Assembly (NCBI GenBank): GCA_963718665.1
Contig: OY970359.1
Location: 640,001 to 704,000, forward strand
From: an uncultured Phycisphaerales bacterium
Lineage (GTDB): Bacteria; Planctomycetota; Phycisphaerae; Sedimentisphaerales; Anaerobacaceae
Direction of reading: 5' to 3'
Length of the DNA: 64,000 nt
The position numbers were made by a program, and so were the translations under genes. Positions 10,671 to 36,194 of the stretch are shown in pieces. A model generated the notes under the pieces. The model made no database searches. It was not told the DNA's origin and saw nothing but the letters and a program-made list of their open reading frames with translations. Position 1 is the first letter of the stretch; every line of letters begins with the position of its first letter.

Positions 10671-10703
10671 AATCTCATATCAACATCTTCGACTGTCTTC
10701 TAT

Positions 10704-10798
10704 CACTTCCCTACGCAGGCCTCGCCTCTTTCGGCTGTCCTGTTCAGGTTCAAAGGGTTTACTCTCAGGTTCGCGTCTCACGCAAACCACCCCTAGTG
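10704..10798 (-). promoter_or_regulatory. TPP riboswitch (variant with extended P5/L5)
   Basis: Minus strand CACTAGGGGTG...CTGAGA...ACCCTTTGAACCTGAACAGG...CCTGCGTAGGGAAGTG upstream of thiC. Confidence 0.92.
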
Positions 10799-10828
10799 AA
10801 CAACTGCTTTATATCTCAACGTTCTCGG

Positions 10829-26248: not shown

Positions 26249-26896
26249 ATGAAGATTCAATTTGCGATTAATGTGCCGAGGCGGTTAGAGGTTGCGCTTG
26301 TATGGGTGGTTTTGAACTATCGCCGATTGCGCTACGGCGAGGCGTTCAGAATCATACCGCTTACAAAAGGATTGCGAGCAATCGTATCGCCTGAAGATTA
26401 CGACCGGCTTGCCGCGTGCAACTGGTGCGCGTCCAAATGCCGACATACAATTTATGCCCAGCGAACAGCCAGAACAACATCTGGCCCAAAAAGGCAGCAT
26501 AACGTGCGAATGCATCGCGAAGTGTTAGGCATCACCGATGACAGGTTCGTTGACCATCAGAATCACAACGGCCTCGACAACCGCCGCTCAAACCTGCGAA
26601 TTACCACACCCGCCCAGAATGGCTGGAATAGAAATAAAACCGCCTCCTCGTGTTCCTCTCGTTTCAAAGGTGTGTGTTGGTCAAGAAAGATGGTCAAATG
26701 GCATGCCCAAATCAAAGAAAACGGCAGACAGACAACTATCGGCTATTTTGACGATGAGGAATCGGCTGCGAGGGCCTATGACGCCAAGGCAAAGGAGCTT
26801 TATGGCCAATATGCTGCGTTGAATTTTCCGGGGCCGGAAAAAGACCCATTGGCCAAATGGAGCAATGCGATTTGCTACGGGAAATTCACAGGATAG
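26249..26896 (+). CDS. HNH endonuclease with C-terminal AP2 domain
   Basis: MHREV...VDHQNHNGLDNRRSNLR (HNH_3); SRFKGV...W.AQI...IGYF...AARAYD...LNF (AP2). Confidence 0.9.
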   Translation: MKIQFAINVPRRLEVALVWVVLNYRRLRYGEAFRIIPLTKGLRAIVSPEDYDRLAACNWCASKCRHTIYAQRTARTTSGPKRQHNVRMHREVLGITDDRFVDHQNHNGLDNRRSNLRITTPAQNGWNRNKTASSCSSRFKGVCWSRKMVKWHAQIKENGRQTTIGYFDDEESAARAYDAKAKELYGQYAALNFPGPEKDPLAKWSNAICYGKFTG

Positions 26897-27003: not shown

Positions 27004-27078
27004 GGTGAGAGTAGCTCAGTTGGATAGAGCATCGGATTGTGGTTCCGAGGGTCGCGGGTTCGAATCCCGTCTTTCACC
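27004..27078 (+). tRNA. tRNA-His (GTG)
   Basis: Cloverleaf: G-1, acceptor GTGAGAG/CTTTCAC, anticodon arm TCGGA-TTGTGGT-TCCGA, T-arm GGTTCGAATCC, discriminator C; CCA not encoded. Confidence 0.97.
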
Positions 27079-27188
27079 CTTTCCCGGTTATCAACAAGGG
27101 ATGAGAACACGCCTGACGCGAAGCGGCAGAGCAGGGTTCGACACGCCGAAGGCGGGCCTCGTTTCGAGAATCCCGTCTTTCACCCTTT
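27062..27188 (+). repeat. 21-bp direct repeat of the tRNA-His 3' end flanking an 85-bp structured insert
   Basis: GAATCCCGTCTTTCACCCTTT at 27062-27082 and 27168-27188. Confidence 0.9.
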
Positions 27189-27243
27189 TTTTGGGGTTAG
27201 ATATTGAACGCAGGATATGGCGGATTAACACCAATGACGAATG

Positions 27244-27372
27244 TTAAACGCCTTCCATCCACAATGCCCGAATCAGCGGTGAATTCATTAATATGACGGC
27301 TGCCAAAAAACCAATAGACAGCAACAGGGGGAACAGTAACACATCTTTGAATACTACATAAATCTTTGACAT
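27244..27372 (-). CDS. 42-aa single-TM microprotein
   Basis: AAGGAG RBS, then MSKIYVVFKDVLLFPLLLSIGFLAAVILMNSPLIRALWMEGV*; below the ORF-track cutoff. Confidence 0.65.
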   Translation of the reverse strand: MSKIYVVFKDVLLFPLLLSIGFLAAVILMNSPLIRALWMEGV

Positions 27373-27588
27373 GGCAAACACTCCTTTTTGTTACAATTGC
27401 CGAACTTATCCCTTATCTGCGTCTTTCCTGACACAGGTATTACTTGCGCGAGCCGGTTGGATTCCAGGCCCGATATTTCCGCGACCAAATAATACTGGGC
27501 CGAACAGGTTTGTTAACCTGACCGGCCCGGCGACTTTCACACTGTTATCTTAAAGCACAATCGCACAAACGATTATGCGAACAGCCAT

Positions 27589-28012
27589 GCTGGGTTCGCC
27601 TGTTTTTGCAAACAAGACCTAACCCAGCGAAGAAAAGGGAGAGAAACTAATTTACCCGCCTCCACTACTACTTTACCCGCCTCCACTACCGTATTACTAT
27701 CGCAAACCTGAGGTCTGCGTTTTTGGACTGCTGGATTTGTGTAGAGAGTCCAAATCCAGCGAAGAAGGGGAGAGAGAATGAGTTTATTACCTTGTCGCGG
27801 CCGATTGACCGCGTATGGTTACGAGCTGGATTTGAGAAGAGAGAGAGTATCAAATCCAGCGAAGAAGGGAGAGAGAATATGTGTAGAATTTGTTATCTTA
27901 ATCACCCCGCTCTAAACAGAGCAGGATGTCGATATTCGTGCCGGGTTCGTTTACCTCGCTTTAGATTATATAATCTGTCTGGGGTAACAAACCCAGCTTG
28001 GGGGGAGAAAAC
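27589..28012 (-). ncRNA. Candidate array of four sibling sRNA units (CU-rich tract + GCTGG...CCAGC hairpin)
   Basis: Units at 27589-27646, 27730-27779, 27825-27878 and 27979-28012; CAAATCCAGCGAAGAAGGG is identical at 27751 and 27851. Confidence 0.55.
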
Positions 28013-28133
28013 TCCTCGTGAGCTATCTAATCACGGCGAGGGCCGTGCGTGCTCTCAGAAAGATGATGGCTTTTCAAAACCCCGACAGGTCTCGGCGAAA
28101 TCGCCAAGCCGCAGCCGGATAAGCCATCGTAAA

Positions 28134-28562
28134 TCAGCCTTCTCTCATTAGCTCCTCAACATTACCAGCAGAAAATAATATTGCCTTGATAGCAACGCCA
28201 TCCTGGATACCGAGCAGATTGGCAACCGTGTCTCTTAAGACATTGTCGGTTGCGTCCTCAGCAAGGACCGCAGAGACGCCCAAAGACCTGGCAGCGATTT
28301 CCTGAGCTTTGCTGCCTGGCTTTACGATGGCAATCGTAGGGATATAGGGTTTAGCCGCTTTGAAAGATTTGAGAAATCTTCCATCGGGCATATCATCCAA
28401 ATCCCATCTGCTGATTACGCTGTTCACCTTTTCATTTTTCAAAGAACGAGCAGCCTCACGACCTGACTGCATTTTTATCAACCTTATCGGCAGTTCCCTT
28501 AACACTTCACTTCTGCCGCCTAAGCCCACTGTTAAAACTGTCGCCTGAACAAGAACTACCAT
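28134..28562 (-). CDS. Atypical stand-alone receiver (CheY-like) protein
   Basis: Receiver pattern (SGREA, VISRWDLDDMPDG, PTIAIV, ARSLGV) with acidic pocket, phospho-Asp and Lys replaced. Confidence 0.7.
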   Translation of the reverse strand: MVVLVQATVLTVGLGGRSEVLRELPIRLIKMQSGREAARSLKNEKVNSVISRWDLDDMPDGRFLKSFKAAKPYIPTIAIVKPGSKAQEIAARSLGVSAVLAEDATDNVLRDTVANLLGIQDGVAIKAILFSAGNVEELMREG

Positions 28563-28633
28563 CTACGTTCCTAAGTACTCTGCGGCTTATTCGCCTACGG
28601 GTGTTTTTATTTTTTTTCTTCGCTAATATATAA

Positions 28634-28650
28634 AGCGAATGGCGTGCCAG
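28634..28650 (-). promoter_or_regulatory. Sigma54 (-24/-12) promoter
   Basis: Minus strand CTGGCACGCCATTCGCT: TGGCACG and GG-N10-GC, about 70 nt upstream of the receiver-gene ATG. Confidence 0.8.
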
Positions 28651-28748
28651 ACCGTGCCGCGAAAAAAAGTATTTTTTAAGTCGTTTACAGCAAAGGAGTT
28701 ACATTGGTCGATTTTTACAGAGGCCTTGATAAGGCATAAAACAATTGC

Positions 28749-28853
28749 CGACCATATTGGTCATAGATAGGCGACAATTATTGTCGTAAGTCATTGCGTT
28801 AGAATGGGACTTCGATGATATGACCACTTTGGCCGGGGGCGACCGAAATGGAA
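28749..28853. promoter_or_regulatory. Four GAC-N7-GTC-type palindromes, candidate upstream activator sequences
   Basis: GACCATATTGGTC (28750), CGACAATTATTGTCG (28772), GACCACTTTGGCC (28822), GACCGAAATGGAA (28841); 100-200 bp upstream of the sigma54 promoter. Confidence 0.6.
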
Positions 28854-29221
28854 CATCTTCCTCACCCCCCTGCTTGCCACGGTGTAGCCATAGGCGAAGC
28901 CGAATCCGCTATATTCTATACGCTGCTTGCCACGGCGAAGTTGAATAACGAAGCCGGGTATGCTGCCTGCTATGCAGGATATTATTGACGAAAGACAAAA
29001 ACTGGGGGATTGGGGGAATCTATTTCCGATTGCAGATTGTAGATTTGAAAATGGGTCCCCTGTTCTTGGCCAAGTAAGCAGCACTCGGGGATGACGCTTC
29101 GCGCCAATTGCGGATTTGGGATGAGGAGGATGCGGTTTTTAGATGTTGAAAAATGATACCGCTTGCGGTATTGTGGGGGCGGGAAGTTGGGGAGAATTGA
29201 AGTCGATGGAGTTATGTAAGG

Positions 29222-33939: not shown

Positions 33940-34640
33940 ATGAATAACGATGTCGCATTAGGCCTTGCGTGGTACGTGGTATTCGTCCTGTCGCTGAGCT
34001 TTCACGAGGCGGCGCATGCGTTTGCGGCGATGAAACTCGGCGACAAGACCGCGTATTACGGCGGACAGGTCAGCTTGCATCCGTTTGCACACATGAGGAG
34101 AGAACCCATCGGGATGATTGTGCTGCCGATTATATCGTATATTTTAAACGGCTGGATGATTGGATGGGCGAGCGCGCCTTATGACACCGCCTGGCGCAGC
34201 GCCATCCGAAACGCGAGATAATGATGGCGATGGCGGGACCTGCGGCAAATCTTATTCTTGCTATCGCCGGCGTGGTGATAATCCGAGTGGGATACGCGAT
34301 GGGTTATTTTTCTCCGCCGGCAAGCATCACGTTTTCGCATATAGCTGACGTGGAGAGTGCGGGCTGGGCGAACAGCATAGCGGTAATGACGAGCATACTT
34401 TTTACGCTCAACTTAGTGTTGTTTATTTTTAACCTGTTACCTATACCGCCATTGGACGGAAGCTGCCTTGTGCCTCTGGTTTTGGACAGTGAAAACGCTT
34501 ATAAATACAAAGCCCTTATCAGTCAGCCATCCGTCGCGATTATCGGATTGGTAATCGCGTGGCAGGTTTTCGGTTATATATTTGCCCCGATTCACCTCTT
34601 CGCGATTAATCTTCTCTACGCCGGCCATCACTACGGTTAG
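33940..34640 (+). pseudogene. Site-2 protease (M50), apparent 1-nt frameshift near 34193 (possibly a sequencing error)
   Basis: HEAAH in the first frame; AGPAANL and FNLLPIPPLDG in the next frame. Confidence 0.8.
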
Positions 34641-34715: not shown

Positions 34716-35789
34716 TTACTGTTTTGCGTTTTCGTCGGCTTCGGCGGCGGGGATGCCGAATTTTCCCATAAGGCGATTGAGCTGGCGGCGATCGATGCCG
34801 AGAATTCTTGCGGCGGCGATTTTTCGGCCTTTGGTGTATTCGATGGTCTGGGTAATGACCCTGCGTTTTACTTCATCGAGGGTCGGCAACTGGTCTTTTG
34901 GATAAGAAGGCGAATCAGCTATTATGATTTCGAAAGGCATTACGGCGGGCTGAATTTCGGGGCCCTCAGTGAGGACGTAAGCACGCTCGATGGCGTTGGC
35001 GAGTTCGCGGACATTGCCGGGCCAGGCGTAGCTAATCAGGAGGCGTCTGACGGATTCACTGAATGTCTTGGGCGGCTCGTTGTAGAAGGCCGACTGGTTT
35101 TTGAGGAAGTATTCGGCCAAATCGAGGATGTCTTCTTTGCGATGACGAAGTGGAGGCACCTCAAGCTGAACAACATTGAGGCGGTAATAGAGGTCTGAAC
35201 GGAACGTGCCCTTTTTGACCATATCCTGCAGGTCCTTGCAGGTCGCGCACAGGACGCGGGCATCGACGGGATACGACATAGCGGAGCCGAGGGGCGTTAC
35301 ACGTCGTTCCTGGAGGACGCGGAGGAGCTTTGCCTGAAGCTCGAGGGGAATTTCGCTTATTTCGTCGAGGAAAATCGTGCCGCCATCTGCCGCCCTGAAG
35401 AAACCGAGCGTGCTGTCAACGGCGCTTGTGAATGCGCCTTTGACGTGGCCGAATAACTGGCTTTCGAATAACTGGCCTGTAAGGGTGGTGCAATCGACGG
35501 GAACAAAAACGCGGTGGGCGCGACTGCCTGAGACGTGAATTTGGCAGGCGACCATTTCCTTGCCGACGCCTGTTTCGCCGGTAATAATAACCGGACATTC
35601 GCGGGTGGCAATAGCCCTGATAACTTCCATTACGGAGTTGAACGCGGCGGAACTGCCGAGAAAATGATTATGCGTGCGAGTATAAAATGACTGCGCAGAC
35701 GCAGAATCCTGCTGTCCGTGCTTGCCGCTTCCATTCTGAAAGCTCAGCTCTTTTGCGCCAGGAGGCACCTTGCGCGAACTATCACCCAT
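34716..35789 (-). CDS. Sigma54-dependent enhancer-binding protein (AAA+ plus Fis HTH) without a regulatory domain
   Basis: GETGVGKE, ESQLFGHVKGAFTSA, FLDEI, WPGNVREL, AARILGIDR; only about 40 residues precede the AAA+ domain. Confidence 0.93.
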   Translation of the reverse strand: MGDSSRKVPPGAKELSFQNGSGKHGQQDSASAQSFYTRTHNHFLGSSAAFNSVMEVIRAIATRECPVIITGETGVGKEMVACQIHVSGSRAHRVFVPVDCTTLTGQLFESQLFGHVKGAFTSAVDSTLGFFRAADGGTIFLDEISEIPLELQAKLLRVLQERRVTPLGSAMSYPVDARVLCATCKDLQDMVKKGTFRSDLYYRLNVVQLEVPPLRHRKEDILDLAEYFLKNQSAFYNEPPKTFSESVRRLLISYAWPGNVRELANAIERAYVLTEGPEIQPAVMPFEIIIADSPSYPKDQLPTLDEVKRRVITQTIEYTKGRKIAAARILGIDRRQLNRLMGKFGIPAAEADENAKQ

Positions 35790-36194
35790 TACTTATCGCC
35801 CCATCTCCAGTGCAGACACATTCTCCCCTGCACCGCTGCAAAAACACAATTTTGGCGAGAATACCCTGCGTGAAGGTGAGGGCACTCTCTCCCATTTCTT
35901 CTTCATATCTTATTCTACGTTACTTAAGGAACAAAGTCAAATGAATTATAGGACTTTTTGTTTTTTGTTGCAGAACAAGCAAAATTGGCATGATAGATAA
36001 AATTGGCTTGAGGTCTAAAAGCAGCCCCAAAAACAGCTAACTTGTTTTGCTGCAAGAGGTTACGACTAAAGGTACGGCGATTATTCAAGTGGATGGCAAA
36101 ATAGAGGACAAGCAATGCTATTTTCTAAGCCAAATTCAATATACTACAAAGCCCGTATGAAAACAGTTATTAGGCGACAAAAACCCTCAGCCCC

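Follow-up and report, generated by a model that had tools for sequence, protein, structure and literature searches.

What is the function of a row of CU-rich tracts, each followed by a GCTGG..CCAGC hairpin, on the minus strand of a planctomycete genome? The row occupies 27589-28012 of the 64,000 nucleotides analysed here, called the window, from an uncultured Phycisphaerales bacterium. In an earlier note, based on the letters alone, base-pairing sibling small RNAs or a sponge for an RNA-binding protein had been proposed. The sequence, its conservation, covarying stems, a promoter motif, the co-occurrence with an activator gene, complementarity and a preference for one class of genes identify the array as a genuine RNA family, not listed before, and as a regulatory module. 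The same evidence makes it fairly probable that the units are sibling base-pairing RNAs with divided labour, which repress the translation of PEP-CTERM mRNAs and feed back on their own activator. The features are collected in Table 1.

Table 1. Features of the array locus and of the activator gene, in window coordinates
Feature	Position	Strand	Basis and remarks
Purine-rich activator mRNA 5' end, predicted target of unit 4	35885..35904	-	Complementarity to unit 4
Sigma-70-type promoter of the activator gene	35912..35940	-	TTGACT-17-TAGAAT; consensus match only
Sigma-54 enhancer-binding protein, likely array activator	34716..35789	-	Pfam Sigma54_activat (AAA+), HTH_8 (Fis HTH)
Two palindromic candidate activator sites (28823-28833, 28751-28762)	28751..28833	-	Pattern
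IHF-like site between activator sites and promoter	28677..28686	-	Conserved by eye; loose pattern
Sigma-54-type -24/-12 promoter, TGGCACGCCATTCGC	28635..28649	-	Motif conserved among loci
Pseudo-receiver, 142 aa	28134..28562	-	CheY-like fold; no phospho-acceptor Asp, no conserved Lys
Leading hairpin B0, 5' of unit 1	28020..28056	-	Predicted fold; GAGAGC..CACGG..CCGTG..GCTCA recurs in relatives
Unit 1	27903..28014	-	Tract 28014-28000; branched hairpin A 27997-27940; hairpin B 27928-27903
Unit 2	27796..27886	-	Tract 27886-27861; hairpin A 27860-27825, CU loop; hairpin B 27813-27796
Unit 3	27701..27786	-	Tract 27786-27761, including CAU (anti-AUG); hairpin A 27760-27730; hairpin B 27719-27701
Duplicated GTGGAGG motif	27646..27687	-	Repeat and fold; predicted partner of the unit 4 tract, which it would partly mask
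Unit 4	27589..27646	-	Tract 27646-27629; hairpin A 27628-27589; predicted pairing with activator mRNA 5' end
3' domain and GC-rich end hairpin	27497..27586	-	Nested stems 27586-27541; hairpin 27528-27497; weak U tail here
Hydrophobic ORF, 42 aa, 3' of the array	27244..27372	-	Conserved in genus; system membership uncertain

All four units were recovered on the minus strand where the earlier note had placed them. In the 2.61-Mb genome the tract and stem patterns occur solely at window 27589-28011, and a dispersed repeat was thus rejected for this genome. A unit begins with a single-stranded CU tract; hairpins A and B come next, each followed by an A-rich linker, the one after hairpin A being short. 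The covarying second hairpin, present in every unit, had been missed in the first description, as had the upstream hairpin (28056-28020), the 3' domain with the end hairpin (27586-27497), the receiver gene and the sigma-54-type promoter. The stem of unit 1 had been thought to close at a near CCCAG, a sequence that relatives lack; the conserved 3' arm is instead AACCCGGC at 27947-27940. The distance of exactly 100 bp between the two middle units was confirmed, as stem A starts at 27860 in unit 2 and at 27760 in unit 3, but it is not special because spacing in the genus runs mostly from 86 to 119 nt. A fixed 100-bp period, not conserved across the genus, was rejected. A GGAG-type motif at the position of the duplicated GTGGAGG recurs in most genus members, and the array region folds with z = -5.85 relative to 20 shuffles.

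In agreement with the prediction for a novel RNA, the Rfam models yielded no gathering-score match for the array in the window. At E<=10 over 27150-28750 only one chance match was obtained, and at E<=1 a search of 12 related loci returned one tRNA and nothing else. A likeness of the GTGAAAGTC stretch to hammerhead or RNase P RNA, being without Rfam support, was rejected. Elsewhere in the window, at 10691-10804 on the minus strand, Rfam recognizes a TPP riboswitch.

The stems had been noted to covary, which was borne out by a genus alignment of 43 units: changes on both sides were found in 10 of 15 pairs, a number reached in none of 500 shuffles and inflated by the relatedness of the units. In the 3' domain, 7 of 45 pairs changed on both sides. 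The G-U wobbles in both alignments are consistent with the CU strand and, together with the promoter motif, favour transcription of the minus strand rather than of the plus strand only. A plus-strand CsrB-type RNA was rejected on the basis of the promoter, the wobbles and the lack of a fully unpaired GGA: the CU strand has 6 GGA in 564 nt and the other strand 8, none of them fully unpaired.

The array is conserved across seven family codes of the order, and the relatives that carry it are Sedimentisphaerales. A covariance model derived from the genus units matched 35 of 61 genomes, all of them bearing the receiver gene, and none of 20 receiver-less genomes; the matches within the genus are there by construction. 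When receiver matches were searched with a purpose-made unit pattern, all 44 with downstream DNA were followed by 1-9 units, and among the matches listed of 15 further receiver matches, one (L388) had no unit. Unit copy number varies rapidly through tandem duplication, and in some loci units sit between the promoter and the receiver gene. Several variant loci were also seen. L039 and L040 share a related, structured-looking insert of about 350 nt between units, which has no Rfam match. In L371 (G026:C22:28916-29279) a second sigma-54 array occurs without a receiver gene and near a more distant activator gene. L037, L041, L043, L374, L382, L383 and L385 represent a second activator-receiver-array system, which has diverged; there the loop motif is found again 3' of the end hairpin, within the leader of the gene that follows. 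Genomes G052, G039 and G010 contain the activator, with no receiver or array found, and the activator of G052 has the leader loop.

Canonical receivers carry a phospho-acceptor Asp after beta3, an acidic pair after beta1 and a Lys after beta5. In the protein encoded directly 5' of the units, alignment and a structure model show that beta3 ends in a variable residue other than Asp and reveal no such Lys, which characterizes it as a pseudo-receiver. Of 61 relatives, 41 have its gene, and a sample of 251 genomes from across the class yielded it in 20, of which 19 belong to its own order; named homologues come from Sedimentisphaerales. The -24/-12 motif lies 5' of all 43 loci with upstream DNA, in 40 of them no more than 200 nt from the start, compared with a background of 0.25% per 200 nt. 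The palindromic pattern, derived from the same loci in which it was counted, is present in 32 of the 43 upstream regions (background 2%), mostly near -113, -184 or -203. Between these sites and the promoter lies a sequence that resembles the IHF consensus. At the other end of the locus, the 42-aa ORF is intact in 10 of 12 loci, duplicated in L009 and contained within RNA contigs; it had no NCBIfam match. Further downstream, a 21-nt direct repeat (27062-27082 and 27168-27188) overlaps the 3' end of tRNA-His (27005-27079) and resembles an integration scar, with restriction and methyltransferase genes flanking the locus.

The likely activator of the array has no receiver domain. Activator and receiver gene are both present in 40 of the 61 genomes, both missing from 17 and found singly in 4. 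In many relatives the activator gene lies directly upstream of the receiver locus; in the window the activator and receiver genes are separated by a set of genes that includes one for restriction-modification. A plus-strand gene at 33940-34640, by eye resembling a membrane peptidase, consists of consecutive ORFs of 93 and 139 aa and is possibly split.

The array stretch was detected, at a small share, in 23 of 24 listed RNA runs. Contigs from 4 of the runs (3 studies, 80% likeness, related strains) cover receiver and array, and one of them bridges the two (27851-28410); the uncovered stretches 28640-28990 and 26417-26884 were not counted as evidence. These contigs argue weakly for expression of receiver and array because they carry no strand, ends or level and may stem from DNA carry-over. 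The Hfq model PF17209 matched none of the 61 genomes, compared with 5 of 14 controls.

The tracts read like complete translation starts in reverse complement, and in several of them the anti-AUG triplet is included. The tracts were ranked against 2120 genes from a purpose-made caller that uses Shine-Dalgarno (SD) strength, so that some starts are wrong; 22 of the genes are labelled PEP-CTERM, in part by means of a pattern. The 50 best starts included 9 of the 22 for unit 2 (ranks 1, 3, 4, 7, 9, 11, 13, 16 and 32) and 8 for unit 3, relative to 4 for the 16S tail as control, with no such enrichment for units 1 and 4 (2 each). The unit 3 median for PEP-CTERM starts, -17.2, lay beyond all 30 shuffles. 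Out of 11,459 sites that passed a pre-filter, both strands of its own genome included, the best non-array one for unit 2 is the SD and AUG of a PEP-CTERM gene (-32.8 kcal/mol). The search for a target of unit 1 gave a PEP-CTERM AUC of 0.54 and no clear best site genome-wide. The AUC for the whole class speaks against a special preference: the tracts reached 0.82-0.85, shuffles up to 0.83-0.86 and the 16S tail alone 0.84, the latter because PEP-CTERM starts are purine-rich with strong SDs.

The preference was followed into other genomes. In four gene sets, enriched in PEP-CTERM genes because 30 such loci were added to about 400 kb each, PEP-CTERM starts made up 16 of the 18 places in the top 5% of the best own tract in G060 (best shuffle 8), 11 of 18 in G046 (7), 12 of 15 in G048 (9) and 6 of 14 in G043 (up to 10). 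The first tract of G060 scored 16 and the 16S tail 5, and the second array of G046 was no better than shuffles for PEP-CTERM starts. With controls matched 1:1 for SD strength, own tracts favoured PEP-CTERM starts in five of five array-bearing genomes, by -2.2 to -5.0 kcal/mol (p 0.028 to <0.001), and the tract set of the genome itself was the strongest in only two of the five. In two array-less genomes, with control sets of only 44 and 43 other genes, none of 10 comparisons gave p<0.05. Tracts preferred the PEP-CTERM starts of their own genome (p=0.0018 for 7 genomes, p=0.033 for 5, related pairs included). As the genomes are related, all these p values overstate the effect. The own-genome preference was absent for random genes (p=0.52) and for other genes with strong SDs (p=0.31), and G043 failed the test. 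Pairing with the start codon did not separate PEP-CTERM starts (14/22, 23/30) from other top sites (43/60).

A family of 18 HNH/AP2 genes with strong purine-rich starts, of which one lies at 26249-26896 on the plus strand of the window, ranked high for units 2 and 4, and likewise for the 16S tail. These paralogues were rejected as targets since 6 of the 18 starts in the top 50 of unit 2, against 4 for the 16S tail, do not set them apart from strong SDs in general. The window genes whose GGAGA-type ribosome-binding sites the earlier note had taken for the complement of the tracts are not the predicted targets: none of them occurs among the 40 best starts listed for unit 3. Its proposal of base-pairing siblings is supported, with the amendment that PEP-CTERM starts and the activator leader are preferred rather than GGAGA-type sites at large. 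The CU tracts are not a generic anti-SD, and they extend beyond the SD complement across the start codon.

The second predicted target is the mRNA of the activator, in which a purine tract lies about 100 nt upstream of the start codon; a sigma-70-type match similar to that in Table 1 directly precedes the target site in 21 of 21 modelled leaders. Unit 4 pairs with this leader at -23.7 kcal/mol, with one U-U mismatch, which makes it the fifth best non-array site genome-wide. The last tract perfectly complements the activator leader over 14-16 nt in L008, L010, L012, L014 and L015. Across 18 lineage representatives, arrays preferred their own leader to foreign leaders, and none of 10,000 permutations was as good; between L024/L328 and L025/L326 array and leader show a matched change. 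No covariation of the pairing was found within the genus (p=0.57), and for L027, L032, L041, L042 and L043 the own leader ranked only 30th to 40th of 42. When 21 of 24 leaders were folded (L010, L025 and L026 were dropped), the effect on the ribosome-binding site was lower in 8 and higher in 6, and no consistent switch of this site was found.

Based on these observations, the following sequence of events is proposed. The receiver-less activator would initiate transcription at the -24/-12 promoter of a predicted sigma-54 operon that comprises the pseudo-receiver gene and the four two-hairpin units. By analogy with the CcsR RNAs, cleavage in the A-rich linkers may then release single units, whose single-stranded CU tracts would pair with mRNA in a cell that lacks Hfq. 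Units 2 and 3 would cover SD and start codon of many PEP-CTERM mRNAs and block their translation, a repressive effect suggested by where the duplex would lie. For unit 4 the predicted partner is the activator mRNA at its 5' end, and this pairing would close a feedback loop, for which a negative sign, as in Qrr-LuxO, is the most likely guess.

An alternative model is that the array controls the activator mRNA only and that the match to PEP-CTERM starts is a by-product of their purine-rich, strong nature. Long perfect matches do exist solely with the activator leader, and the 16S tail also ranks PEP-CTERM starts high. Arguing against this model is our finding that the tract retained by the middle units is another one, ending in anti-AUG, and that in most genus members their pairing with the leader is weaker than that of the last unit; moreover, the PEP-CTERM preference survives SD matching and was not seen in the two array-less genomes. 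Feedback alone is unlikely. A cis role on the transcript that contains them is another option: the units might be processing or stabilizing signals, SD-independent translation elements or antiterminators that pair with the end hairpin and permit read-through into downstream PEP-CTERM genes. In favour of such a role, each of three tandem PEP-CTERM genes in L369 (G024:C8:24381-26094) has one unit immediately 5' of its AUG, and their SD energies (-1.3, -2.6 and -4.3) are three of the four weakest among 20 called starts. In 11 of 45 loci, the first long downstream ORF is a complete PEP-CTERM gene, and in 15 of 60 arrays the 7-nt loop of the end hairpin is complementary to the unit loops, in five sequence classes. 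Full loop/anti-loop pairing was found in 47 of 55 own combinations and 64 of 524 foreign ones, counted with a pattern that was derived from these same loci and caught some non-loop sites. However, the array type of the window lacks a loop/anti-loop pair, and downstream of the window's array come a short ORF and a tRNA; the trio represents one tandem cluster, the genus-tuned model detected no unit at 100 PEP-CTERM loci from six further genomes, and the matches to distant mRNAs would be left unexplained. A function purely in cis is decidedly unlikely. The trio and the poor pairing of the units with the receiver's own start (ranks 1135-1742 of 2120) fit either self-avoidance or a cis role. All five f5-family genomes have the loop of their arrays in the activator leader, too. 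A genome-wide tag role of the loop motif was rejected, as its four extra sites lay in coding or unrelated DNA and looked like chance.

A CsrB-like sponge, titrating a protein that binds CU or hairpins, would account for tandem units in variable number and for CU in loops as well as in tracts, and the genome encodes two CsrA homologues. The same genome that has the trio contains two units right upstream of an ORF that by eye is csrA-like (L370, G024:C33:14477-14761), where no sigma-54 motif was found. The sponge named in the earlier note gains no positive support, however: the CU strand offers no fully unpaired GGA, and the tracts vary by lineage and array position in step with the predicted RNA targets, which renders a sponge very unlikely. 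That the row is a neutral or DNA-level repeat devoid of RNA function is scarcely credible; the fast change in copy number by tandem duplication would be expected of such a repeat, but compensatory changes and wobbles, the strict linkage to promoter and activator, and conservation across seven family codes would not. Sibling base-pairing RNAs directed at PEP-CTERM starts and at the activator mRNA are the preferred reading.

Among known systems, the array resembles the CcsR cluster in its layout and Qrr-LuxO in its logic without being a member of either; the Rfam models of both failed to match it. According to two reports (PMC4615179, PMC8034643), the CcsR1-4 or cuckoo RNAs of Rhodobacter are likewise tandem two-hairpin siblings in the 3' UTR of a small-protein gene, with one alternative-sigma promoter, an end terminator, variable copy number and an anti-SD pairing sequence. 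There the seed CCUCCUCCC is located in each loop of 2-4 adjacent hairpins, whereas the seed of the array is single-stranded and 5' of the hairpins. CCUCCUCCC is absent from the window and occurs in 4 of 44 arrays, 5' of the stem rather than in a loop. The CcsR cluster follows a DUF1127 gene and an RpoH promoter; the array differs in its pseudo-receiver leader gene, its sigma-54-type promoter, its Planctomycetota host without Hfq and in units that differ in predicted target. CsrB and RsmZ are distinguished by many GGA in single-stranded loops, a feature that the array lacks.

The Qrr genes of Vibrio are sigma-54-dependent. In Qrr1-5 with LuxO (PMC3262071, PMC4211561), sibling sRNAs pair with the mRNA of their activator, as is predicted for the array; the Qrr genes are dispersed and Hfq-dependent, in contrast to a single tandem row in genomes in which Hfq was not found (0/61). 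LuxO has a receiver of its own, whereas the array's activator has none and a separate pseudo-receiver is encoded in the operon; the predicted site also differs in being at the 5' end of a long activator leader. The array locus does have a sigma-54-type motif and complementarity to the activator mRNA, which may or may not function as their Qrr counterparts do. NfeR1 of Sinorhizobium (PMC10746234) pairs with an mRNA of its enhancer-binding-protein system, NtrBC, as unit 4 is predicted to do with the activator mRNA, and is a single NtrC-repressed sRNA that acts at the ntrB start, with neither an array nor a paralogous target family. PrsK/PrsR of Proteobacteria similarly ties sigma-54 and an enhancer-binding protein to the PEP-CTERM family; there every PEP-CTERM gene has its own sigma-54 promoter (PMC1569441), unlike the post-transcriptional link predicted here. 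In this genome a sigma-54 motif was found within 300 nt of none of 20 pattern-called PEP-like ORFs, about half of which are false calls. The activator scored 280.9 bits against the PrsR model TIGR02915 (cut-off 502.6), in a match that begins at model position 137 and includes no N-terminal receiver.

The PEP-CTERM report stated in 2006 that further PEP-CTERM regulators outside Proteobacteria remain to be found (PMC1569441). For planctomycetes of this order, no regulatory RNA, and no description of the array RNA, was encountered in a literature survey of mainly open-access main texts; screens of structured RNAs could list it in their supplements. A wider model, doubtful though possible, is that of a retargetable guide array, in which units are duplicated and their seeds re-tuned, such that one sigma-54 signal would silence most of a surface-protein family of 20-75 members. 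PEP-CTERM genes that bear units and lack an SD would escape, resulting in a switch of the surface coat. In many lineages the terminal anti-loop hairpin would dock on every unit, and in one family also on the activator leader, and so time processing or termination like an anti-repeat, without Hfq. If the preferred reading is correct, the array would be an RNA regulator of a whole paralogous surface-protein family, with units specialized by target, and would include feedback on its activator and a covarying loop/anti-loop device.
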